Shown piece after piece: positions 1-10,399 of a DNA stretch of 64,000 nucleotides. Under the pieces are notes generated by a model. The model ran no database searches, had not been told where the DNA came from, and saw only the letters and a program-made list of their open reading frames with translations. Source of the DNA: a phage. The number at the start of each line of letters is the position of its first letter. Within the stretch, counting starts at the first letter, position 1. Position numbers and translations under genes: made by a program. The stretch lies in NCBI GenBank assembly GCA_029220445.1, contig GCA_029220445.1_3666.1, one strand, 5' to 3'.

Positions 1-35
1 ACACGCTGCAAAATTCAAGTAAACTAGACACAAAA

Positions 36-54
36 GGCGGGAATGTTTCCCGCC
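36..54 (+). promoter_or_regulatory. GC-rich 5' leader stem-loop (ggcgggaatgtttcccgcc) of first early cassette
   Basis: Perfect inverted repeat ~20 nt upstream of RBS and ATG at 74; same hairpin plus CA-rich leader recurs before most early ORFs. Confidence 0.5.
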
Positions 55-73
55 AGCACAAAGGAAAAAGATC

Positions 74-478
74 ATGAATAAGAACGTACGCCGCATCATG
101 AACGAGTTGGCAAACGATGAAAAAATTATTGACATGCATTTGATCAACATTTGCCGCCGTTGTGTAACATATAACAACCGCGCCGCAAAAGCGCGTGAGA
201 TGAACGCAAAAGGTACCTTAAAGCCATTCCAGGTGGTGGTAAAGGCCATTAAAGATGTAACTAATACGGCAAACCAGGTACAGGGGAACACCAACGAGAG
301 TACCAATATTGATCCGGCTTACATCATGAAACGGATCCGGACCTGCAAGAACAAAGAGCAAGTGTATAATATCATAGACTGGTTGGATTCTATGGGCGAT
401 GTGGTTTACAATAGGTTTTCTGCAGCTATCGAGATCCAGCTTGACAGGTTGGACGGTAAAGTACTGAAAACTTACTAA
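74..478 (+). CDS. hypothetical early protein (134 aa)
   Basis: ORF preceded by leader hairpin and purine-rich RBS; no recognisable motif. Confidence 0.6.
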   Translation: MNKNVRRIMNELANDEKIIDMHLINICRRCVTYNNRAAKAREMNAKGTLKPFQVVVKAIKDVTNTANQVQGNTNESTNIDPAYIMKRIRTCKNKEQVYNIIDWLDSMGDVVYNRFSAAIEIQLDRLDGKVLKTY

Positions 479-480
479 GT

Positions 481-526
481 TTATTTTTAGATGGCCTTGA
501 CTTCAGGGCCATCAATAAAGTAAACT
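481..526 (+). repeat. conserved intergenic stem-loop element, copy 1 (TTATTTTTAGATGGCCTTGACTTCAGGGCCATCAATAAAGTAAAC)
   Basis: Near-identical copies at 1103-1147 and 4845-4890, stem-conserving variant at 1438-1478; sits directly after a stop codon. Confidence 0.7.
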
Positions 527-559
527 AATCTCAACTAAGCGAAAAAAGGGGGCTTTAAG

Positions 560-679
560 ATGAGCACTACACGCCAATACACAAAGGTAACTATTATCGT
601 TTGCGTTGTCGGTTACATCCTGGCGCAAATGTTAATGAGTAGCGCTAACAGTTTTGCAAAATTTTTCTTAAATTTTTAA
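560..679 (+). CDS. small hydrophobic peptide (39 aa), putative membrane protein
   Basis: ATG 8 nt after AAGGGGG RBS; hydrophobic core; below ORF-track size cutoff; stop overlaps -35 of next promoter. Confidence 0.3.
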   Translation: MSTTRQYTKVTIIVCVVGYILAQMLMSSANSFAKFFLNF

Positions 680-707
680 TTGACAAACTAACTTAGATCG
701 ATATACT
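680..707 (+). promoter_or_regulatory. sigma70-like promoter (TTGACA-N16-TATACT)
   Basis: Hexamers with 16-bp spacer upstream of leader hairpin and ORF at 759. Confidence 0.6.
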
Positions 708-758
708 TAAACACGTAAACGGGAAAACTTCCCAGAGCACACAAAAGGAGAAAACACC

Positions 759-1100
759 ATGACTACTATGACCGCCGCAGAAAAAGCTATGCAGATCGCC
801 GCGCTGAAAAAACAGATCGCAGACCTTGAGAACAAGATCGATAACTTTGAAATCGACGAGGACAAGTACGACGAAAACTATGATGAATGGTTAGACGAGA
901 TCTACGGCGAAATTATGATCGGAAACATTTCTTTTCTTCCGTCGCGTATCCTCAAGGAGCTAGATCCTATCGCTTACCGCTGCGGATTTAGCGACTACAT
1001 CGACAGCCTGGATATTGAGGAAGATGAAGAATACCAGGAACTACAGACAGAGTTAGAAGAAGCAAAAGAAGATCTTGCGGAGCTGGAAGAAAACGAGTAA
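759..1100 (+). CDS. hypothetical acidic early protein (113 aa)
   Basis: ORF with GGAG RBS; strongly acidic C-terminal half. Confidence 0.6.
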   Translation: MTTMTAAEKAMQIAALKKQIADLENKIDNFEIDEDKYDENYDEWLDEIYGEIMIGNISFLPSRILKELDPIAYRCGFSDYIDSLDIEEDEEYQELQTELEEAKEDLAELEENE

Positions 1101-1102
1101 GA

Positions 1103-1147
1103 TTATTTTTAGATGGCCTTGACTCCAGGGCCATCAATAAAGTAAAC
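1103..1147 (+). repeat. conserved intergenic stem-loop element, copy 2
   Basis: Sequence identity to 481-526 and 4845-4890. Confidence 0.7.
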
Positions 1148-1189
1148 TTTATACTGTTAACACTGAACTAATTCAGAGGAGTTAAAACC

Positions 1190-1435
1190 ATGGCAGCACT
1201 AATCACCAAATATTATGCCCCTACCAACACCAAAAGCGCCCGTATCATGGTAAAAGGCTTCGGACGTAAAAAGGTTTACACCTGGGATTATGCCTTAGAC
1301 ACGGAAGACAACTACACCAACGCGATGACCGATTTTATTAATGATCTGAACACGCGGATCTTGACAAATTATAAAATTACCGACATTGCCTATATAGGGG
1401 AAGGCGGGATCTGTTTTGTCGGTATCGTCAAATAA
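1190..1435 (+). CDS. hypothetical early protein (81 aa)
   Basis: ORF with GAGGAG RBS. Confidence 0.55.
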   Translation: MAALITKYYAPTNTKSARIMVKGFGRKKVYTWDYALDTEDNYTNAMTDFINDLNTRILTNYKITDIAYIGEGGICFVGIVK

Positions 1436-1437
1436 GC

Positions 1438-1478
1438 TGTTTTTTCGGTGGTCCTGGTAGCAGGGCCATCTATAAAGA
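1438..1478 (+). repeat. conserved intergenic stem-loop element, variant copy 3 (different loop, compensatory stem)
   Basis: GGTCCTGGTAGCAGGGCC hairpin plus conserved CATCTATAAAG flank; stem preserved while loop differs. Confidence 0.55.
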
Positions 1479-1510
1479 CAGTTTATCAACACAATGAAAG
1501 GAGAAAGTAC

Positions 1511-1858
1511 ATGATCAGCGGGGCAAGTTTTATTATTGGCGCTATTGCTACGGCTTTAATTGTAAACAAGATCCAATCTAAAAACGAAAAAGAGAGCAAC
1601 GCGCTCACAGAATACCCATTTTGGGTATTCAACGACAATGAAGACTACATTATCAAGTACAAGAATGAGAAGGGCGACCAGGTAACACCGCGACCGATCC
1701 CAGCTTACAAGATGCAAGAAACACTATACCGCCTAAAGGCTGGAGGCGCAAAAATCGTAGACTTTTGGGGATATGATTGCAAGGATCAGGAGGTTATAAA
1801 GCGCCGTATCCGGGCTATTCAGGCCAATATTGAAGTTAGCAAGGGGGGGAATATATGA
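1511..1858 (+). CDS. hypothetical membrane protein (115 aa)
   Basis: ATG 1511 preferred over track start 1448 (which lies in the repeat element); GGAG RBS; N-terminal hydrophobic helix. Confidence 0.55.
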   Translation: MISGASFIIGAIATALIVNKIQSKNEKESNALTEYPFWVFNDNEDYIIKYKNEKGDQVTPRPIPAYKMQETLYRLKAGGAKIVDFWGYDCKDQEVIKRRIRAIQANIEVSKGGNI

Positions 1859-2052
1859 AGATTAATTTTGAGAAGATTGTAAAGCGATCTCATGATTCCA
1901 AAGAGCTGCCGGAACGACGCCAGCGTAACAATAAACTGAATAAGCCGAAAAGATTTGGGAAGATCTGGCGAAATCACTATGATCGCAAATTACCCAGCCT
2001 GCTTTTGGAACGTGAACGACAAGCGGAACGATACCGCCACAAAGACAAATAG
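1855..2052 (+). CDS. hypothetical basic protein (65 aa)
   Basis: ATGA start/stop overlap with upstream gene; Arg/Lys-rich. Confidence 0.45.
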   Translation: MKINFEKIVKRSHDSKELPERRQRNNKLNKPKRFGKIWRNHYDRKLPSLLLERERQAERYRHKDK

Positions 2053-2058
2053 CAACCA

Positions 2059-2086
2059 ACGCCCCGCCATTGTGCGGGGTTTTTAT
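2059..2086 (+). terminator. intrinsic terminator (ccccgc-loop-gcgggg + T-run)
   Basis: GC stem-loop followed by TTTTTATTT just after stop at 2052. Confidence 0.7.
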
Positions 2087-2233
2087 TTCTATCCTACGAA
2101 TAGCGCCCATGGTTGGCCCCACAAACGCCACAAAAGCCCCTACCTATGCAATCCCCTTTATTAACCTGAAAACATCACCCAGGGCCGTTTTATGGTGTTA
2201 AAAAATATCATTGACAGTGATTTTATTTAAAGC

Positions 2234-2262
2234 TTGACACCTTGGAATAGTCCGGATATACT
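2234..2262 (+). promoter_or_regulatory. sigma70-like promoter (TTGACA-N17-TATACT)
   Basis: Consensus hexamers upstream of ORF 2298. Confidence 0.65.
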
Positions 2263-2297
2263 AACCACATCAAAGCAAGGAGGAAGGAGTAAACGCC

Positions 2298-2558
2298 ATG
2301 CGTAAATTAAAAAATTTTGATAAAGTTGATGTTGTCCTGAATAATTTTTACTACTGCAATAACAAGGCCATTTGGTGGCGTGATAGTTCCACCGATAAAG
2401 TCAAGGCGCGCTTTCTCCAGGGGCACTGGCAAGGCCGTCCAGTGATTAAAATCATGGGGCAATTGGTAGCGTTTAAAAATTGCCACCGTGTTGATGACGT
2501 TGAAGAGATTTTAAGCATTTTGCGCCACAATAATTTAAAAAATAGTGTTGACAAGTAA
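2298..2558 (+). CDS. hypothetical early protein (86 aa)
   Basis: ORF with AAGGAGG RBS. Confidence 0.6.
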   Translation: MRKLKNFDKVDVVLNNFYYCNNKAIWWRDSSTDKVKARFLQGHWQGRPVIKIMGQLVAFKNCHRVDDVEEILSILRHNNLKNSVDK

Positions 2559-2575
2559 ATCTCGATAAGTATACT
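2548..2575 (+). promoter_or_regulatory. sigma70-like promoter (TTGACA-N16-TATACT), -35 overlaps last codons of upstream ORF
   Basis: Hexamers followed by leader hairpin ggcgggaaaacttcccgcc and RBS. Confidence 0.65.
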
Positions 2576-2632
2576 TAAACATACAGGCGGGAAAACTTCC
2601 CGCCACTAACAAAGAAAACAGGAGAAAATATC

Positions 2633-3256
2633 ATGACCACCGTTAACATTACCACAGGTTGCAATTTATCTTTCGACGTGCTGACCGACGAACAAAAAGA
2701 AAAAGCTATTGAAATGGTCCGCGAAAGAGAAGAACACAGCGGAGAGGATTTTTTCGCAGAAAGTGTAATTGAATATTATAAAGAACAAGTTTTTCCAGAG
2801 TACGGCCTTGAAGATACCGATGTACATTGGTCCGGCTTTTGGTGCCAGGGTGACGGCGCGTCAATCAGTGCTGAAAACGTGGATTTAGAAAAATTCTTGC
2901 GTAAAGTAAAGGCCCTGACCAAGTTCCGATCAATTCGTCACTTGTTCGGCACAATGCACGATGGCGAGTTATCAGCCAGTATTGAACGCGACAAGTACAG
3001 CCGTTACAGCCATGAAAACACTGTAAGCGGATACATTGATACCACCTGGCTAGATCTGACCGCCAAACAAGAAAACAAAGTGGAAGACCTGGAAGAGCTG
3101 ATCACCGAGACGGTACGGGAGCTATCCCGCAAGGTTTACGTAGACCTGGAGGAGGCCTATCTAGAACAGTTCACTACCGAAAACCTGATCGGCCTTATCG
3201 AGGCCAATGATTGGCGGTTTGATGTGGATGAATATGGCGAGATGACTTTTTCATAA
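2633..3256 (+). CDS. hypothetical acidic protein (207 aa)
   Basis: ORF with GGAG RBS; acidic; no confident family assignment. Confidence 0.65.
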   Translation: MTTVNITTGCNLSFDVLTDEQKEKAIEMVREREEHSGEDFFAESVIEYYKEQVFPEYGLEDTDVHWSGFWCQGDGASISAENVDLEKFLRKVKALTKFRSIRHLFGTMHDGELSASIERDKYSRYSHENTVSGYIDTTWLDLTAKQENKVEDLEELITETVRELSRKVYVDLEEAYLEQFTTENLIGLIEANDWRFDVDEYGEMTFS

Positions 3257-3264
3257 ATAAAGTG

Positions 3265-3292
3265 TTGCAATAACCTAAAAACCTGCTATATT
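3265..3292 (+). promoter_or_regulatory. sigma70-like promoter (TTGCAA-N16-TATATT)
   Basis: Hexamers followed by leader hairpin ggggcaagacgcttgcccc. Confidence 0.55.
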
Positions 3293-3345
3293 AAAACTCA
3301 AGGGGCAAGACGCTTGCCCCCACACAAAACAAAGAGGAAAACATT

Positions 3346-3726
3346 ATGAAAAACACTACTAAAGCTATTGACACCGTTATGTTTAACCTGGTTACCTTTC
3401 GCGAGGATATGAAAGATCTTCCACGTGAAACAGTGTGCGATCACATTGAAAACTATCGCAAACTAATCAAAGAGTTACCTTTAAAACGTGACCAGTATGC
3501 GGCTAACGCTATGCTCAACGCCATGATCAAAAAGATGATTCAGTGTGATTTAACCCTGGCCTATGATTATGCAGGTGGTCGTTTTGCAGTATACAATCAG
3601 CCCGTGCCCGGTATGGGCACCACCGAAGAATTGCACGCGTTAAATCTGAAGCAAGATGTATGGGATAACATGCCCCGCGTGGTGGTGTGGGCAGAAAGCG
3701 GAAAGATTTACGGCGACAATTTTTAA
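3346..3726 (+). CDS. hypothetical early protein (126 aa)
   Basis: ORF with AGAGGA RBS. Confidence 0.6.
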   Translation: MKNTTKAIDTVMFNLVTFREDMKDLPRETVCDHIENYRKLIKELPLKRDQYAANAMLNAMIKKMIQCDLTLAYDYAGGRFAVYNQPVPGMGTTEELHALNLKQDVWDNMPRVVVWAESGKIYGDNF

Positions 3727-3790
3727 TCAGGTAACAGGCGGCATATTTGCCGCCTTATTGTTAATCAGAACTGTAAAAGAGGTACATAGA

Positions 3791-4162
3791 ATGGAATTTA
3801 TTATTTTGGCTATATTAGTTGCCTTGTTTAACGCCTGGATCGCTGGCAAGATGGGCAGATCCGCCTTTTTATGGTTTATTATATCTATTTTCCTGGGAGT
3901 GGTTGCAACTATTGTATTGGTTATCCTTGCAATTGTTGACAAGGGGAATAATAGAAAGGGTAAAGTATTTTCAGACCTGTACGACGCTCAAACATTTGTC
4001 AACGCCTACTACAGCGATCTTCCAGTCTCCCTACGTTGCAGCCTTGCACAACAGGTTTTCGATGAAGCTAAAACCAGAGATCACGCCCATGAGATTTGTT
4101 TAACTGAGGCGGATCGCCTATTTGAGAGGAATAGAAAATATGTGGACCAGCCGTTTAAATAA
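3791..4162 (+). CDS. small membrane protein (123 aa, two predicted TM helices)
   Basis: ATG 3791 with AGAGG RBS preferred over overlapping track start 3656; hydrophobic N-terminal 60 aa. Confidence 0.5.
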   Translation: MEFIILAILVALFNAWIAGKMGRSAFLWFIISIFLGVVATIVLVILAIVDKGNNRKGKVFSDLYDAQTFVNAYYSDLPVSLRCSLAQQVFDEAKTRDHAHEICLTEADRLFERNRKYVDQPFK

Positions 4163-4381
4163 TGCCACGTTAATTAATCCCTTTAGTGAAGATTTGAAGC
4201 CAGCCGCCTGGCGCGATGGATTCAATAACGAAAGCTTTATTTTCAGGCCTGATCTTAAGGAATTTTATAACAATGGATCGAACAACGACAGAGATAATTT
4301 TTCTTGTAATGTGCGTGGTGATAATACTCCTGGGGGCCATTGCAAACCACGTCACTGCTAACAGGAGGGAAGGGGGAGACG

Positions 4382-4501
4382 ATGACAACCAAGGATAAGC
4401 CCCGCACCGATAAGGTGCGCCGTGTTATGGTATGGCTTGAGATCATCGCCCTTGAAATATTGTTAGGCGTAGGGATGTACTTTATCGCTGTAAGTAACTG
4501 A
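4382..4501 (+). CDS. small hydrophobic peptide (39 aa)
   Basis: Strong RBS AGGAGGGAAGGGGGAG before ATG 4382; C-terminal TM segment; followed by GC hairpin and T-run. Confidence 0.35.
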   Translation: MTTKDKPRTDKVRRVMVWLEIIALEILLGVGMYFIAVSN

Positions 4502-4558
4502 TAACGGCCCCCAATCCCTGGGGGGCTTAACTTTTTCAAAAATTTTTCTTCCCGGGTG

Positions 4559-4586
4559 TTGCAATCCGGTCCGGAATGTGGATAAT
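4559..4586 (+). promoter_or_regulatory. sigma70-like promoter (TTGCAA-N16-GATAAT)
   Basis: Hexamers upstream of leader hairpin ggggagctaatcccc and ORF 4643. Confidence 0.55.
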
Positions 4587-4642
4587 AACAATCAACGGGG
4601 AGCTAATCCCCACCACCACAAAAACCAGAAAGGAGAAACAAA

Positions 4643-4843
4643 ATGAGCAACAATATCCGCGTTATTAACTTCAAAAAAGAAGAAAAAATTGCCGTGCTGA
4701 TTGACGGTCAAGAAATCTTCAAGGGCGACTATGAAGATCATCAAACGGCGATTAGTATCACTCGCGTGATTGGTTACCATAATTTTTACCCCCAAGGCGC
4801 TGAGGCAGCGGTTAAACGAATCAAAGAGATTGTAGGCCTGTAA
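4643..4843 (+). CDS. hypothetical early protein (66 aa)
   Basis: ORF with AGGAG RBS. Confidence 0.55.
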   Translation: MSNNIRVINFKKEEKIAVLIDGQEIFKGDYEDHQTAISITRVIGYHNFYPQGAEAAVKRIKEIVGL

Positions 4844-4844
4844 A

Positions 4845-4890
4845 ATTTATTTTTAGATGGCCTTGACTCCAGGGCCATCAATAAAGTAAA
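4845..4890 (+). repeat. conserved intergenic stem-loop element, copy 4
   Basis: Identical core to copies at 481 and 1103. Confidence 0.7.
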
Positions 4891-4936
4891 TTTAAACCCT
4901 GTTAAAATACCACGCAGTTAACAAGGAGTGATAGAC

Positions 4937-5236
4937 ATGTTTATCCAGGCTAATAATCTTTATTTCTTTGATGGTCAGATCGTAGATGGTGTGGAAGTGG
5001 AGATCACCGGGTGCCCTGGCGGTCAGGCTATGACTTTTCGGAATAATGCCTTTGATGATTCTCATATCGTTATGAGAATGGAAGTTACGAAGCTGGATGA
5101 CAAGAAAACACTTATTGACTATTCTGTGAAAGATCATCCAGACTACCGCATGATCCATGGTGATTTGTGCACTGTTGACCGTGACAAGGTGGGCGGCATC
5201 GTGATCGCTATTGTGAACGATGTTTTCTCAAACTAA
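4937..5236 (+). CDS. hypothetical early protein (99 aa)
   Basis: ATG 4937 with AAGGAG RBS (track GTG start 4928 lies inside the RBS). Confidence 0.55.
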   Translation: MFIQANNLYFFDGQIVDGVEVEITGCPGGQAMTFRNNAFDDSHIVMRMEVTKLDDKKTLIDYSVKDHPDYRMIHGDLCTVDRDKVGGIVIAIVNDVFSN

Positions 5237-5253
5237 CTTCAGCAGGTGATTTT

Positions 5254-5604
5254 ATGAAAGTCAAACTATATTACCTTAATGAGCTTAACCCCCTTGCCCA
5301 GGTCCGCGCCCTAGCTAATACCTTGATTTGTGAGAAATCTGTATATTGTGTTGAGCTTAACGCCATGCGTGAACGTCTCAAAGGTGGTTACTTTAACATC
5401 CATGCCGCCATCAACGGCCTGAATATGGAATTTATCCGTTTACGTAACAGCCGCCGGAATCTGGCAAGAATGGAACAAGATCCGGCCCACCTTCGTAAGC
5501 TGGTTATTGAAAATCATCTGATGTTTAATGCCGATGGTGATTATTACCATTTTCACCGCAGACGCTGGTACCGTGGCGGCAATACAGACAAGAATGCAAA
5601 ATAA
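5254..5604 (+). CDS. hypothetical early protein (116 aa)
   Basis: ORF closely following previous gene. Confidence 0.55.
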   Translation: MKVKLYYLNELNPLAQVRALANTLICEKSVYCVELNAMRERLKGGYFNIHAAINGLNMEFIRLRNSRRNLARMEQDPAHLRKLVIENHLMFNADGDYYHFHRRRWYRGGNTDKNAK

Positions 5605-5642
5605 GGCCCCTAGCAGGGCCTGCAGCAATATAATCACATAAA

Positions 5643-5675
5643 GGCCATGCAACCGCATGGCCTTTATTATTTTGG
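5643..5675 (+). terminator. intrinsic terminator (ggccatgc-loop-gcatggcc + T-run)
   Basis: 8-bp GC stem followed by TTTATTATTTT. Confidence 0.7.
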
Positions 5676-5722
5676 CGTTACAACGGCATACGAGGCGCTT
5701 AAAAAAATTTTTAAAGAAGTAC

Positions 5723-5750
5723 TTGCATCATTCCCGACAATATGGATAAT
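5723..5750 (+). promoter_or_regulatory. sigma70-like promoter (TTGCAT-N16-GATAAT)
   Basis: Hexamers followed by leader hairpin gggggaggccccc and ORF 5808. Confidence 0.55.
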
Positions 5751-5807
5751 AAGAGTTGTCGAGGGGGAGGCCCCCAATCATTGACCAGATAGATAGGAGT
5801 TAAAATC

Positions 5808-6092
5808 ATGGCTATTGTTACCGCTGGCGATGTAGTAGAAATGGAAGCAAAATACTTAAAAGCGGGTATGCATATCCTACGGAATGATCAAGAGTTATTA
5901 TTAACGATGGTTGACTATAATCCCGGCCAGGATTATCCAAGCATCGACTACTTTTTTGAGTATGTTGATGAAGAGTTAAAAGAGGATGAGGCCTATTGCG
6001 GTGAGTTCTGCAACTTCTTTTGTCCTGATGAGGTTGTAAAGGTTATTTATCAACCTGGCGTAGCTTTCCCGCTGCACGCTATCAATAAATAA
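5808..6092 (+). CDS. hypothetical early protein (94 aa)
   Basis: ORF with AGGAG RBS. Confidence 0.6.
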   Translation: MAIVTAGDVVEMEAKYLKAGMHILRNDQELLLTMVDYNPGQDYPSIDYFFEYVDEELKEDEAYCGEFCNFFCPDEVVKVIYQPGVAFPLHAINK

Positions 6093-6147
6093 ACCTGGCG
6101 GGGCCGAAAAGGCCCCCAATTATGAAAATAAAGAGAGGTAAATCATC

Positions 6148-6381
6148 ATGATGGAACAAATTAAACGCGCTGAGGCTATTAATGGCAATGTGATCTATTT
6201 TGTCAGTAAAAACGAAAAAGGCGTACCATATGCGGCGGTAATAGTACAACCTGACGGCGATTATTGGTTTACTGTGTACGGCGCTTATTCTTTTGGGCGT
6301 CCAGTGCATGATAAAATTTTGAAAGTAGCGAACCCTACCGGGAAGAATATCACAGCAGAAAAATTTTTTGAAAATAGTTGA
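6148..6381 (+). CDS. hypothetical early protein (77 aa)
   Basis: ORF with AGAGAGG RBS; stop codon embedded in next -35. Confidence 0.55.
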   Translation: MMEQIKRAEAINGNVIYFVSKNEKGVPYAAVIVQPDGDYWFTVYGAYSFGRPVHDKILKVANPTGKNITAEKFFENS

Positions 6382-6405
6382 CATGACCGTATAAAACTGT
6401 AATAT
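6378..6405 (+). promoter_or_regulatory. sigma70-like promoter (TTGACA-N16-TAATAT)
   Basis: Hexamers; -35 overlaps TGA stop of upstream ORF. Confidence 0.55.
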
Positions 6406-6456
6406 ATAAATCAAAGGGAGCAACAAGCCCCACCAACCACAAAGAGGATAAAAATC

Positions 6457-6636
6457 ATGGCTATTATTGCAAAGACTGAGATCGTAGGCTTAGATTCTAT
6501 TCTCCTCGCATATGAGGAAGCTATAGAAATGTATGTGGTTTCCTATGGTGAGTATATCCGTGAATATAAATCTATTGATCTGGCTTTTGAATGTTATATT
6601 CGCCAGGTAAATAAAGCATATGATGATTATCGTTAA
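6457..6636 (+). CDS. hypothetical small protein (59 aa)
   Basis: ATG after leader hairpin and AGAGGA RBS; below ORF-track cutoff. Confidence 0.4.
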   Translation: MAIIAKTEIVGLDSILLAYEEAIEMYVVSYGEYIREYKSIDLAFECYIRQVNKAYDDYR

Positions 6637-6642
6637 AATAGT

Positions 6643-6670
6643 TTGACAACAATTACAAATCGGGTAGAAT
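6643..6670 (+). promoter_or_regulatory. sigma70-like promoter (TTGACA-N16-TAGAAT)
   Basis: Hexamers followed by leader hairpin and ORF 6728. Confidence 0.55.
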
Positions 6671-6727
6671 GTATTTCGTAGGGGAGACAAGCGCCCCATT
6701 AAACGCAACAGGAAGAGGATAAACACC

Positions 6728-6973
6728 ATGAAAAGCAATAAAGGTTATAACGGTTACAAAAACAAAACTCATTGGAATGTAAGCCTTTGGATTAATAACG
6801 ATGAGTCATTGTACCGGTTGGCCCAAGGCTTTATTAACGCTAATGCTAATCGTAATGATGCGGCGCGGGATATGATGCTTTTTCTGGAGCTAACCGGACA
6901 AGATAAGACCCCGGACGGCTTCAAGTACAGCACTACGGCGATCCGTTCCGCGATGGTTGGAATGAAACACTAA
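6728..6973 (+). CDS. hypothetical early protein (81 aa)
   Basis: ORF with GGAAGAGGA RBS. Confidence 0.55.
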   Translation: MKSNKGYNGYKNKTHWNVSLWINNDESLYRLAQGFINANANRNDAARDMMLFLELTGQDKTPDGFKYSTTAIRSAMVGMKH

Positions 6974-7050
6974 AATCACATAGCCGCCTTACCCTGGGGC
7001 TGTAGTAGCGGCCCCATGAATAAGGTTACTAACAGAAGAGAATAAACACC

Positions 7051-7155
7051 ATGAAACAGAAATTAATCGATGCAGTGATCTTGGTTATTGCCCTTGATAT
7101 TGGCCTGATTGCAACCATGTCTAATATGATCTTGTCTTCCAACGGTATCGGGTGA
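7051..7155 (+). CDS. small hydrophobic peptide (34 aa)
   Basis: ATG after leader with AGAAGAG RBS; hydrophobic; short. Confidence 0.25.
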   Translation: MKQKLIDAVILVIALDIGLIATMSNMILSSNGIG

Positions 7156-7164
7156 GGTTGGCAA

Positions 7165-7380
7165 ATGATCACTAACAAAACAGGCAAAACGGAATTTTTA
7201 CGCAACTTACAGATCGGCAAGCCTGAGATCTGGTATTGCACTAAAACACCACGTGACGAAATGAAAGACTTCACCGCCACGCTACAACGGGTAAAGATAT
7301 CCATCACGCAGAAAAAGGCCTTGATAGTGGTGGAAGGTGAGATCCCCCAAACCGTTGTTATAGTTGAGCGTACAGCATAG
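7165..7380 (+). CDS. hypothetical early protein (71 aa)
   Basis: ORF immediately downstream of the small peptide. Confidence 0.45.
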   Translation: MITNKTGKTEFLRNLQIGKPEIWYCTKTPRDEMKDFTATLQRVKISITQKKALIVVEGEIPQTVVIVERTA

Positions 7381-7471
7381 TTTAATTTATACCGATACCC
7401 GAAAATTAACCAACAAAGCATAAACAGGCGGTTACCGCCGCCTTAAACGTAGCAGAAAGAGGATAGACACA

Positions 7472-7756
7472 ATGAAAAAGATGATCGCAGTGGTTGCCCT
7501 GGTTGTTGGACTTAATGCGCCTGTAATGGCTAAAGAGCTGGCAAAAGAGGTTGATCTAACGGATATCCATGCCGTCAATCAAATCGGGGTTACTTATCGC
7601 TTATGCCTTGCCGCTAAAACTTTCCAGGACGGCACGACAGAGTACTACGGATTCGAGGGTATCCGGTGCGGTGAGCTTGCTCGCGACCTTAAGGAAGATC
7701 CAGAGCTGGAAGATCTGCCCATCACCGTAAACGGTAAAGCTTACGTAAACCGTTAA
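7472..7756 (+). CDS. secreted/periplasmic protein with N-terminal signal peptide (94 aa)
   Basis: MKKMIAVVALVVGLNAPVMA signal-like N-terminus; AGAGGA RBS. Confidence 0.6.
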   Translation: MKKMIAVVALVVGLNAPVMAKELAKEVDLTDIHAVNQIGVTYRLCLAAKTFQDGTTEYYGFEGIRCGELARDLKEDPELEDLPITVNGKAYVNR

Positions 7757-7758
7757 CC

Positions 7759-7893
7759 ATGAGAAAGATAATCATCACCTTGGGGATTGTGGCGGGATCG
7801 CTGGCGCTCTTTCCCCTTATGGTTAGGTATGTGCTGATCAGTATTGTCCTGGTAGTCAGTGATCTATTGGAAACGGTTGGCACCTTGTTTTAA
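7759..7893 (+). CDS. small membrane peptide (44 aa)
   Basis: ATG 2 nt after upstream stop; hydrophobic throughout. Confidence 0.3.
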   Translation: MRKIIITLGIVAGSLALFPLMVRYVLISIVLVVSDLLETVGTLF

Positions 7894-7906
7894 AGAGCGA
7901 TAAAAA

Positions 7907-8098
7907 ATGAATGTCGAACAAGTTAGAAAGGTATTGGCGGTACTGCGTTATCATAATCATAGAAAGGTCATAGACGATCCTGATTATGTCGATTCAAACC
8001 TGGAAGAGGATACACTACAAGCCATAAGTAACATGCAAGAATTGCTAAAGCGCATGACAGAGAAAAACCGACCGGACTACATAGGCGAAAAAATATAA
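7907..8098 (+). CDS. hypothetical early protein (63 aa)
   Basis: ORF followed by intrinsic terminator. Confidence 0.5.
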   Translation: MNVEQVRKVLAVLRYHNHRKVIDDPDYVDSNLEEDTLQAISNMQELLKRMTEKNRPDYIGEKI

Positions 8099-8112
8099 TA
8101 TTTATAAACTAC

Positions 8113-8144
8113 AAAACAGGGCTTGCAATGGTCCTGTTTTTTGT
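8113..8144 (+). terminator. intrinsic terminator (acaggg-loop-cctgt + TTTTTTG)
   Basis: Stem-loop plus T-run after ORF 7907-8098. Confidence 0.65.
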
Positions 8145-8225
8145 TATACTTATTCCACGGCAGGCACCTGGCGACGGGAGGAGACAATCACCGGGCCTGC
8201 CTGTCATATAAGAACTATAAAAACC

Positions 8226-8254
8226 GTTGACATCTGCCATGGGGTGGGGTAACA
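8226..8254 (+). promoter_or_regulatory. sigma70-like promoter (TTGACA-N17-TAACAT)
   Basis: Hexamers followed by leader hairpin gggcaaaagtgccc. Confidence 0.5.
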
Positions 8255-8309
8255 TTTATCTTGAAGGGGCAAAAGTGCCCACACAACACCCAAGAGAGAG
8301 GAAAACATT

Positions 8310-8582
8310 ATGTCAAGCTGGATTAATCAAGAAGTCGAATCACGTTTTAATGCTATATGGGATCTCATCGAAAAAGAGGACGGAACATCAAGCCCCTACC
8401 TCAACAATTTGGAATTCCATTTTGTGGAAGCGATGAACGCAGAACATGATCACGAAGGTGGCGCGGATGAGTTCGCTAAAGGTTATGGCTTTAACAATGC
8501 CAACGAAATGATCGAGGCGGTAGTACTCCAGGCTGAGGAAGATTATCAATTAAAAACGCTTGAATTCTGCCGCCGTAAGTAA
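8310..8582 (+). CDS. hypothetical early protein (90 aa)
   Basis: ORF with AGAGAGG RBS. Confidence 0.6.
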   Translation: MSSWINQEVESRFNAIWDLIEKEDGTSSPYLNNLEFHFVEAMNAEHDHEGGADEFAKGYGFNNANEMIEAVVLQAEEDYQLKTLEFCRRK

Positions 8583-8642
8583 TAAGATAATGACACGGGC
8601 CAAAAGGCCCACTAATCAGAACCACACAAAGAGAGAAAGAAA

Positions 8643-8861
8643 ATGACAACCCGTAAAATTAAAGTTGTTTGCATTGAATCGACTGGGGGCGCTTTTGTAG
8701 TTGGTCAGGAATATAATGCGGTTTTAATGGGTACGGATTGGAAGGTTAAAGGCCTTAATGGTTACGAGTACGGCACTACTTGCGGCTTGCGTGGTCGAAT
8801 CGGATACGTGAGTTTAGACAATAAAGAAAAATTTGTTTTCGACACCCTTGTGAGTAAATAG
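8643..8861 (+). CDS. hypothetical early protein (72 aa)
   Basis: ORF after leader hairpin gggccaaaaggccc and AGAGAGA RBS. Confidence 0.55.
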   Translation: MTTRKIKVVCIESTGGAFVVGQEYNAVLMGTDWKVKGLNGYEYGTTCGLRGRIGYVSLDNKEKFVFDTLVSK

Positions 8862-8938
8862 CATGAATTGCTAAAGACTGATCTGCGAACTGCTGTATTA
8901 TCAACTAATCAAAACGAACCACATAAAGAGGAAACATC

Positions 8939-9202
8939 ATGAAACGTCTGGATCAGCTTAAATTAGTTCAGTACATGGCCTACAGAATTCTTGAAGTCCA
9001 AAAAGGTAGCAAAAAAGAGGTTTGCGAGAAAGCTTATAAGATCTTTACCCGCAAAAAAGATGACTGGATGCTACGCCAGACCAAAAAGGCTGACATCTTG
9101 GGGTACCTGGAAGAAGAGATCCGCCTTGAAGAGCAAGAAGAGATCCGCCGTAGTGAGGCAGATTATCAGGCAGCTTGGGAAAGCTGGATGAGTAACAAAT
9201 AA
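8939..9202 (+). CDS. hypothetical early protein (87 aa)
   Basis: ORF with AGAGGA RBS; charged, helical-looking. Confidence 0.55.
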   Translation: MKRLDQLKLVQYMAYRILEVQKGSKKEVCEKAYKIFTRKKDDWMLRQTKKADILGYLEEEIRLEEQEEIRRSEADYQAAWESWMSNK

Positions 9203-9269
9203 TACAACAAGTTACATGGTCAGGGGGCAATAAAGCCCCTTGATCGCATAAAAATTATGCCATCCTTGG

Positions 9270-9298
9270 TTGACAAGGATCGGCAGTTTTGCTATATT
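9270..9298 (+). promoter_or_regulatory. sigma70-like promoter (TTGACA-N17-TATATT)
   Basis: Near-consensus hexamers upstream of ORF 9347. Confidence 0.65.
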
Positions 9299-9346
9299 CT
9301 TTTTGAAGGGAAGTTGTAAGAAAATTAACTAAGAGGTAAAAACACC

Positions 9347-9766
9347 ATGAACATTAAATCTAATAATCCGGCATATAGCTTTGATAACGCTTTTTGTCAC
9401 GGTCCGGCGGCGAAAGGATTCGAAATCGATGGTAAACTAATTATTGTCAATGTTGACGGGGAAGAGGTTGCAGTATATCCGGTAGCAGACGTTAAAAGCC
9501 GTTTACAATGCCGCATTGATGTTACCGCCTATCAGCTTGATCCGGTCCGCATAGTTGCCCTGGTCCTGGAGGAAGAAATTAAAGCCATGCATCATAGCAA
9601 CAAGTTTATCGGTGACGCTCAGGATAATATGAAGGTATGCCGCTATAAAGTTAATGAAGTGCTTAAAGAATATGGATTTAAGGATCTGATGATCAAACGT
9701 GATGAAAAATTCCGCTACCGTAACGACCTGGCAAATCGGATTTTTGAAATATACGAATCATTATAA
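9347..9766 (+). CDS. hypothetical early protein (139 aa)
   Basis: ORF with AGAGG RBS; last gene of plus-strand early block. Confidence 0.6.
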   Translation: MNIKSNNPAYSFDNAFCHGPAAKGFEIDGKLIIVNVDGEEVAVYPVADVKSRLQCRIDVTAYQLDPVRIVALVLEEEIKAMHHSNKFIGDAQDNMKVCRYKVNEVLKEYGFKDLMIKRDEKFRYRNDLANRIFEIYESL

Positions 9767-9784
9767 TTTTTTAACTGAATTATC

Positions 9785-9809
9785 AAGGGGCTTAGGCCCC
9801 TTTCTTTTT
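9785..9809 (+). terminator. intrinsic terminator (aggggc-tta-gcccct + T-run)
   Basis: Hairpin plus TTCTTTTTG immediately after ORF 9347-9766. Confidence 0.7.
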
Positions 9810-10399
9810 GTCTGCTCTTCCCCCTACCATAAACGGCCCTACCTGGCAAGTGGAATAATTGACGAGCCATCAATCCCACACACTGTACAAATATACATGT
9901 AAAATAGCTATTGCATAACCTTTCATTGTGTGGTAGCAGGGCTATTTTTACCCGTTTTCCCTTCCAAAATTGCACGTAATGCCGCTATTGCACAAATTTT
10001 AACCTGATGCAGATCTTCAATATCTTGTCAACAAATAAAAATTCTTATAAGTCATACACTTACACCAACACAAAAGCGTTTTCTACGTGAAAAATCGAGT
10101 ATAACTATAGCCGCCAGATCTCAGAATTTACGTACGCTCACCATTCTATAGCCTGCTAAGTATTTATTCCAACCATAGAATAATGGAATAGTCAATACCT
10201 GCATAAAATAATTATTCGTTTAAATTGCATAACATAAATCAGCCAGGGTGTCAACATTTTTCGTAAACAGTCCGAAATTATCGCTGTGAATTATCATAAA
10301 CAGAGAAATCTTTAGTCGTCTAATGTTTACTGTACGTTACTATACTGACTGGAATCATTAGATGACTAAGAGAAAGATAAGAAATAATTAACAATACAA

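Follow-up and report, generated by a model that had tools for sequence, protein, structure and literature searches.

The window analysed here is a 64,000-nt stretch of phage DNA (assembly GCA_029220445.1, contig GCA_029220445.1_3666.1). It is 93–96% identical to rV5-like Escherichia coli myoviruses of the genus Vequintavirus (FFH2, rV5_ev*, APECc02, and BASEL phages), and its positions 1–9000 are an early region of small + strand genes. This early region carries four copies of a 44-nt element. Each copy starts 2–3 nt 3′ of the stop codon of a small open reading frame (ORF) and lies 29–46 nt 5′ of the next start codon. The element is a sense-strand hairpin in the mRNA. Three copies (type A) also contain a sequence that resembles a sigma-70 promoter, while the remaining copy (type B) keeps the fold and has no −35 hexamer. 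The features are listed below in the order of their positions.

476–478, + strand: stop codon of ORF 74–478, 2 nt 5′ of copy 1
481–524, + strand: copy 1, type A; lower stem 481–487/517–523, internal loop 488–489/514–516, upper stem 490–499/504–513, loop 500–503 (ACTT)
497–502 and 521–526, + strand: promoter hexamers of copy 1, −35 TTGACT and −10 TAAACT
525–1102, + strand: cassette between copies 1 and 2, with ORF 560–679, a canonical promoter at 680–707, and ORF 759–1100
1098–1100, 1433–1435, and 4841–4843, + strand: stop codons 5′ of copies 2, 3, and 4, at distances of 2, 2, and 3 nt
1103–1146, + strand: copy 2, type A; lower stem 1103–1109/1139–1145, internal loop 1110–1111/1136–1138, upper stem 1112–1121/1126–1135, loop 1122–1125 (ACTC)
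1119–1124 and 1143–1148, + strand: promoter hexamers of copy 2, −35 TTGACT and −10 TAAACT
1438–1481, + strand: copy 3, type B; same two-helix fold (−21.7 kcal/mol), loop GTAG, without a −35, short UUUAU 3′ of the full hairpin
4847–4890, + strand: copy 4, type A; identical to copy 2, −35 TTGACT 4863–4868 and −10 TAAATT 4887–4892

The 44-mer TTATTTTTAGATGGCCTTGACTCCAGGGCCATCAATAAAGTAAA is exact at 1103–1146 and 4847–4890, and the copy at 481–524 differs from it by one mismatch in the loop (C to T). No shuffle of the window contained a match to the 44-mer. The divergent copy at 1438–1481 has GGGCCATC(A/T)ATAAAG in common with the others, and this pattern has four matches in the window against 0.04 expected. 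A preliminary description of this DNA, made from the sequence alone, had reported the element at 481, 1103, and 4845 with a divergent copy at 1438, all after early-gene stop codons. The placement after stop codons is correct for all four copies and the position 1103 is exact; the copy at 481 carries the loop mismatch, and the third copy lies at 4847, 2 nt from the reported position. It had also proposed a genome-wide search, and with two covariance models and filters off we recovered these four copies and no others from the 64 kb, each of them on the + strand.

Elsewhere in the early region there are near-consensus sigma-70 promoters (TTGACA-16/17-TATACT at 680, 2234, 2548, and others) and ordinary hairpin-plus-T terminators (2061, 3736, 4506, and 5638). 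The gene junctions that hold the four elements have neither a near-consensus promoter nor an ordinary terminator of that kind. Domain searches of the flanking ORFs were uninformative: the PHROGs matched are of “unknown function” and Pfam gave nothing relevant, so that no partner protein can be proposed from them.

All 44 nt fold as one RNA structure on the + strand in the four copies, with a 7-bp lower stem, an internal loop, a 10-bp upper stem that includes six G-C pairs, and a tetraloop. Minimum-free-energy folding gives −19.6 to −21.7 kcal/mol, at z-scores from −5.5 to −6.4. Folding of the minus strand is much weaker, with only −8.4 kcal/mol for the copy at 1438. The internal loop is 2 × 3, with UA or UC on the 5′ side and NAU on the 3′ side. 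The lower stem pairs UUAUUUU with AAAGUAA, or UGUUUUU with AAAGACA in the copy at 1438. Thus the T-run, which the preliminary description had treated as a 5′ flank, is one strand of the lower helix and pairs with the A-rich 3′ flank; it is not a misplaced U-tract. That description was right that the stem of the divergent copy is kept. The upper-stem changes that it called compensatory are three one-sided transitions that stay paired only as G·U, and the true double compensatory changes (U-A to G-C and A-U to U-A), which it had overlooked, are in the lower stem. In copy 3 the helix can be extended over the upstream stop codon, with 1430–1437 pairing with 1481–1487.

The element was found by blastn in 121 phage records, all of them rV5-like, and type A usually occupies three places per genome. 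Each genome has four copies, which lie within ~4.4 kb of its early region; in phage JEP1, a stretch of 40 kb contains the same four copies and no others. Absence of the element from close relatives had been named in the preliminary description as an outcome that would refute it, and these records instead carry the element. When IMG/VR and metagenomes were scanned with patterns and then searched with models, further variants came from a second lineage of 130–140 kb uncultivated contigs (L145, L128/L139, L067, L147, L171, L187, and L251). Their early regions share just a few hundred alignable bases with the window, and they carry up to five copies in ~7 kb. No cultured relative of this lineage was found by blastn with its loci. 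An initial collection scan with GGGCCATCWATAAAG was too unspecific, as ~115 of 120 loci were chance matches in unrelated contigs.

Among 185,579 bacterial and archaeal species, each represented by one genome, only scattered single pattern matches in unrelated taxa were found. These are matches to the pattern, and we read them as probable chance matches. The tblastn searches with the flanking proteins returned scattered distant homologs in unrelated phages and no more distant copies of the element. From the sequences searched, the element is apparently confined to rV5-like phages. No Rfam family matches positions 1–10000; three chance-level hits were returned (E>0.1), none at gathering score. 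The rV5 genome paper lists the element neither as a promoter nor as a terminator, and we found no earlier description of it in the literature on Vequintavirinae.

Selection on structure, which the preliminary description had argued from the four copies, is borne out by covariation across the variants. In 29 distinct variants and 16 pairs, 97.6% of the cells are standard pairs, compared with 89.2% in column shuffles (none of 500 reached the observed value) and 37–57% with slid partners. Four pairs are altered on both sides, in 34 cells. The core of 46 flanked variants from the two lineages contains 619 Watson-Crick, 101 G·U, 6 A·C, and 9 other cells, so that 98.0% are paired on the + strand vs 85.0% on the − strand. 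Sequence is almost invariant in the hairpin's middle part, YUUUU-N-GRUGG … (C/U)CAUC-NAU-AAAG. The variable parts are the top, with upper stems of 8–11 bp and loops of 3–16 nt, and the outer three pairs of the lower stem, which are altered with compensation. The segment between the two sides of the internal loop ranges from 21 to 36 nt among family members. The G·U/A·C asymmetry speaks for a single-stranded structure of the sense strand, which we take to be RNA, and against a palindrome in duplex DNA; so do the one orientation shared by all copies and the variable length of this segment. Three further pairs reach into the stop codon; they are ~85% paired and covary. This extension has 2.9 contiguous pairs, only slightly more than the 2.1 of a control with mismatched partners, and the evidence that it is real is suggestive only.

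The type A copies (481, 1103, and 4847) have TTGACT in the stem top and loop, followed after 18 nt by TAAACT or TAAATT, a 9/12 match to the sigma-70 consensus hexamers. Only type A has hexamers 16–18 bp apart together with A at −11 and T at −7. Type B comprises the copy at 1438 and copies in L067, L139, and L145 (3079, 7005, and 9607), in which the fold is kept and the −35 is missing. Since type B keeps the fold without a −35, the hairpin is the common denominator of the family and the promoter is an addition. The orthologous copies at L128:2554 and L145:6568 follow the same upstream gene and have wholly different tops (4-nt and 16-nt loops), yet both contain TTGACA-17-TAAACT, a 10/12 match. 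Other type A variants have TTGACA, TTGACG, TTGATA, or TCGACA at the place of the −35. To judge by the known UP consensus, the T-tract of type A may occupy the position of an UP element. The hexamers retained in rebuilt loops and the T-tract at this position support a promoter in type A, and we infer that the type A copies are sigma-70 promoters. Public records give opposite labels to this one element family. In the record of phage Gotham, PhagePromoter labels the copies as promoters, including the ortholog of copy 4, while the ortholog of copy 3, which is type B, is annotated “terminator” in the record of phage Murica. An N4-type hairpin promoter was considered and turned down, since these phages are not known to have a virion RNA polymerase gene.

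The copies also lie at the junctions of gene gain and loss. ECP26, phiWec189, and the IMG/VR contig L094 all lack positions 525–1102, and the junction is inside one element. In all three, this hybrid element has the flank of copy 1 upstream and that of copy 2 downstream. Its loop variant is that of copy 1 in phiWec189 and that of copy 2 in ECP26, which suggests separate events or conversion. In the second lineage, the ORF between L145:5935 and L145:6568 is gone from L147, and a hybrid element stands at the junction. The copies are near-identical direct repeats, and these junctions show that gene cassettes have been lost or gained by homologous recombination between them. The preliminary description had noticed neither this nor the lower helix nor the sigma-70-type promoter in three of the four copies. 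In phage rV5_ev146, deletions between copies were also expected, but its breakpoints are elsewhere.

A different repeat of ~45 nt was observed in the second lineage (L145 2625–2670 vs 5472–5517, and L147 1151–1196). It is also found at an indel junction and it overlaps canonical early promoters (TTGACA-16-TATTAT and TTGACA-16-TATACT). Cassette shuffling in the second lineage extends beyond the hairpin element.

Our preferred interpretation, to which we give a probability of about one half, is that the element is a composite regulatory cassette at early-gene boundaries of rV5-like phages, comprising a processing or stabilising hairpin, a promoter in type A, and a crossover site. In early polycistronic transcripts the hairpin would act as a processing and/or 3′-end-stabilising signal and not as a terminator. 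Among the options offered in the preliminary description (RNA processing or stability, factor-dependent termination, or a palindromic protein-binding site), RNA processing or stability fits best. The likeliest agent would be a host endonuclease that is specific for double strands, of the RNase III type. If it acted as on the T7 site R1.1, the cut would fall at the internal loop, CAAU^AAAG, at predicted positions 516^517, 1138^1139, 1473^1474, and 4882^4883, and the upstream message would then end in a 10-bp hairpin. Type A copies would restart transcription ~7 nt past the −10, near 533, 1155, and 4899, so that transcripts begun there would not carry the hairpin. Read as a promoter, the DNA of type A has its −35 in the hairpin loop and its −10 across the end of the lower stem, with the T-tract where an UP element would lie. 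As near-identical direct repeats, the copies allow recombination to remove or insert gene cassettes.

RNase III-type recognition is the leading specific mechanism, although we propose it only tentatively. RNAs cleaved by E. coli RNase III typically have two helical turns, and internal loops confine the cut to a single strand, which leaves the 3′ end protected by a hairpin (PMC1540722). The element has ~20 bp, in keeping with the two turns, made up of a 9-bp upper helix (99% paired), a 7-bp lower helix (96%), and the 3-bp extension (~85%), with the 2 × 3 loop between. At least 11 bp are needed from the cut site to the loop, the distal box has U-A and then U·G, and position 4 of the R1.1 proximal box is a non-Watson-Crick pair (PMC1540722). 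Counted from the loop, type A of Vequintavirus has U-A and U·G at the distal-box positions and A × A at position 4 of the proximal box, as R1.1 does.

The early RNase III sites of T7 (R0.3, R0.5, R1, R1.1, and R1.3) were also folded from the T7 sequence, at what we take to be their published cleavage positions. Like the element, they are repeated intercistronic hairpins of early mRNA that adjoin stop codons. Common to both are also an upper stem of ~10 bp with a loop of 4–5 nt, and an internal loop with a weak lower stem; sequence is conserved in the middle and varies at the top. Two of these sites, as we placed them, lie 25 and 46 nt from the annotated E. coli promoters B and C. There is no sequence homology, however, and the covariance model R2 had no match in the T7 early region, so the resemblance is architectural only. 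The two also differ in that the proximal-box pairs of the element are not those of the T7 sites, and that type B and the second lineage lack the U·G or have shorter upper stems.

Several observations weigh against the composite interpretation. In the Gotham ortholog of copy 1 (L001 641–679), 5 nt (GGGCC) of the 3′ arm have been lost and the hairpin is destroyed, while TTGACT and the −10 are intact; this is a natural stem-knockout allele and that site at least is dispensable. The type A promoter of the window has only its 9/12 match and a suboptimal 18-nt spacer, and in the second lineage one copy has TCGACA and another TAAACC. For RNase III, C-G replaces the U·G of the distal box in type B, most second-lineage copies have no U·G, and some of their upper stems are 8–9 bp, below the 11-bp minimum (PMC1540722). 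The invariant G-C and U-A beside the internal loop are unlike the preferred proximal box. The strong sequence conservation of the hairpin middle could mean a different, sequence-specific partner, as RNase III needs little sequence. The pairs that reach into the stop codon, although covarying, show no strand bias. In its fullest form, the interpretation gives one 44-nt sequence three functions: an RNA hairpin whose conserved internal loop is recognised in a sequence-specific way by RNase III or by a dedicated phage or host factor, which would cut the early messages into separately stable pieces; a promoter with its −35 in the loop; and a crossover site for early-gene cassettes. This full combination is possible but rather doubtful.

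The element could instead be a leaky intrinsic or factor-dependent terminator or attenuator, in which the hairpin and a short U-rich tail (UUUAU or UUUGCUAU) halt some polymerases and type A restarts transcription. The tails of type B are U-rich (GUUUAUCA, UUUGCUAU, and UUUGGUGU), the Murica copy was labelled a terminator, and the stem-loops of T4-type PeSLs are terminators (PMC4122927). Like intrinsic terminators, the element is a GC-rich stable hairpin straight after a stop codon. In contrast to them, its flanks are reversed in polarity on either strand, with the U-rich one 5′ and the A-rich one 3′, and the strong stem has no U-tract behind it: AAUAAAG lies 3′ of the upper stem, there are at most three consecutive U 3′ of the full hairpin, and none at copy 481. 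A terminator was called where a U-run (~5 of 8) begins 0–2 nt 3′ of the stem on the transcribed strand, and no copy in the window or in L145 was flagged by this criterion on either strand. The helix beside the tail is the weak A-U/G·U stem under the internal loop, and the element is missing from the ARNold-based lists for rV5 and Gotham. By its sequence, the element is thus not an intrinsic terminator, as the preliminary description had already concluded for the canonical kind, and partial termination seems unlikely. A dedicated RNA-binding protein of the phage or host might read the internal loop and neighbouring pairs, and regulate translation, stability, or antitermination without RNase III. 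YUUUU-N-GRUGG/CCAUC-NAU-AAAG is invariant in two lineages while the top and outer stem vary, which is more constraint than RNase III normally imposes. However, no candidate protein was found, the flanking genes offering no informative domains, and a conserved middle with a variable top is also seen in the T7 RNase III sites. We regard such a protein as improbable, too.

That the element is a plain sigma-70 promoter with a UP-like T-tract and an incidental hairpin is quite improbable. The −35 and −10 of type A, the PhagePromoter annotation, and the TTGACA-17-TAAACT retained in rebuilt loops would agree with it. Type B nevertheless keeps the fold without a −35, the 5′ arm, which lies upstream of the −35, shows covariation with the spacer of the promoter, and the G·U to A·C ratio of 101:6 would be meaningless for duplex DNA. 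Near-identical copies, indels bounded by copies, and the degraded copy of Gotham would also be expected of a selfish or neutral repeat, similar to a miniature inverted-repeat transposable element or a pure recombination site, with no regulatory role. We give little credence to this, as the copies have a single orientation and a fixed place 1–3 nt past stop codons, the structure is preserved through compensation over two lineages, and the copies number just 4–5 and all lie in the early region, with none in the bacterial genomes scanned beyond the scattered matches taken as chance. The inverted GATGG/CCATC half-sites and the AT-rich flanks could suggest a palindromic duplex-DNA operator for a dimeric protein, the binding site of the preliminary description. 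Such an operator is very improbable, since the segment that separates the half-sites varies over the 21–36 nt given above, the loop sides are unequal (2 vs 3 nt), and the symmetry is retained solely via G·U on one strand. A frameshift or readthrough signal from the U UUU UUC run of type B was also considered and rejected, because the run sits past the stop codon, directly against the stem.

The composite cassette that we prefer has counterparts among known phage elements. PeSLs of T4-type phages are short units with a stem-loop, a sigma-70-type early promoter, and an AT-rich upstream tract; as here, several near-identical copies lie between small genes of a hyperplastic early region, and indels of close relatives are bounded by copies (PMC2839356, PMC4122927). 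In PeSLs the stem-loop is a true terminator with a T-tract, upstream of the promoter (PMC4122927). The present element shares with them the promoter/stem-loop composite in several intergenic copies and the indel junctions within elements, and it lacks a terminator upstream of the −35. Here, the −35 is inside the hairpin loop, the U-run is 5′ of the hairpin and forms part of the lower helix, a U-tract is missing, and one of the two subtypes lacks a promoter. The phages belong to a Vequintavirus-like lineage and not to the T4 type, and we do not claim a common origin. Of the known systems, PeSLs are the closest match at the DNA and evolutionary layer, and at the level of RNA the closest are the RNase III sites of T7. 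The element belongs with known kinds of phage regulatory cassette and is not a new category.

Repeated extragenic palindromes of E. coli (REP/BIME) are host elements that occur in hundreds of copies just after stop codons, and they can shield the upstream message from 3′ exonucleases. The element is likewise a repeated palindrome directly after stop codons, but it has another sequence and is present only in phages, in 4–5 copies.

Phages related to rV5 are widely isolated and are used against pathogenic E. coli, and their early gene regulation is unstudied. With an RNA motif that is backed by covariation and exact predictions for its cleavage and start sites, early mRNA processing in these phages can be tested directly, and annotations in >120 genomes would be corrected. 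The idea that small regulatory cassettes drive the shuffling of early accessory genes would be extended to a second phage group. The element could also serve phage engineering as a compact cassette boundary with its own promoter. If the three-function form is true, rV5-like phages would have evolved, independently and in one unit, a counterpart of both the T7 RNase III sites and the T4 PeSLs.

Other features of the early region were also observed. The product of the 65-aa ORF at 1855–2052 (+ strand) is homologous to the gene 1.1 protein of phage T7 (Pfam PF08200, E 4.6e-11, above cutoff), and the Murica record likewise carries a “T7 gp1.1-like” remark. It is a T7-type early gene within the early region of an rV5-like myovirus. 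Most canonical early promoters in the first 5 kb (680, 2548, 3265, 4559, and one just left of the window) have a GC-rich stem-loop ~6–12 nt past the −10 (36–54, 720–733, 2586–2604, 3301–3321, and 4595–4613), followed by an A/C-rich leader and GGAG. These stem-loops look like 5′-terminal stabiliser hairpins on primary early transcripts. Several of them are listed as minus-strand terminators in the promoter/terminator scan, and these calls are probably false. Finally, 17 records of “Campylobacter phage” (MG0656xx, e.g. MG065655.1 and MG065659.1) are ~96% identical over 6 kb to this rV5-like phage. Campylobacter jejuni is the stated host in 15 of the 17; this host label looks doubtful, and the sequences are possibly from contaminating coliphages.

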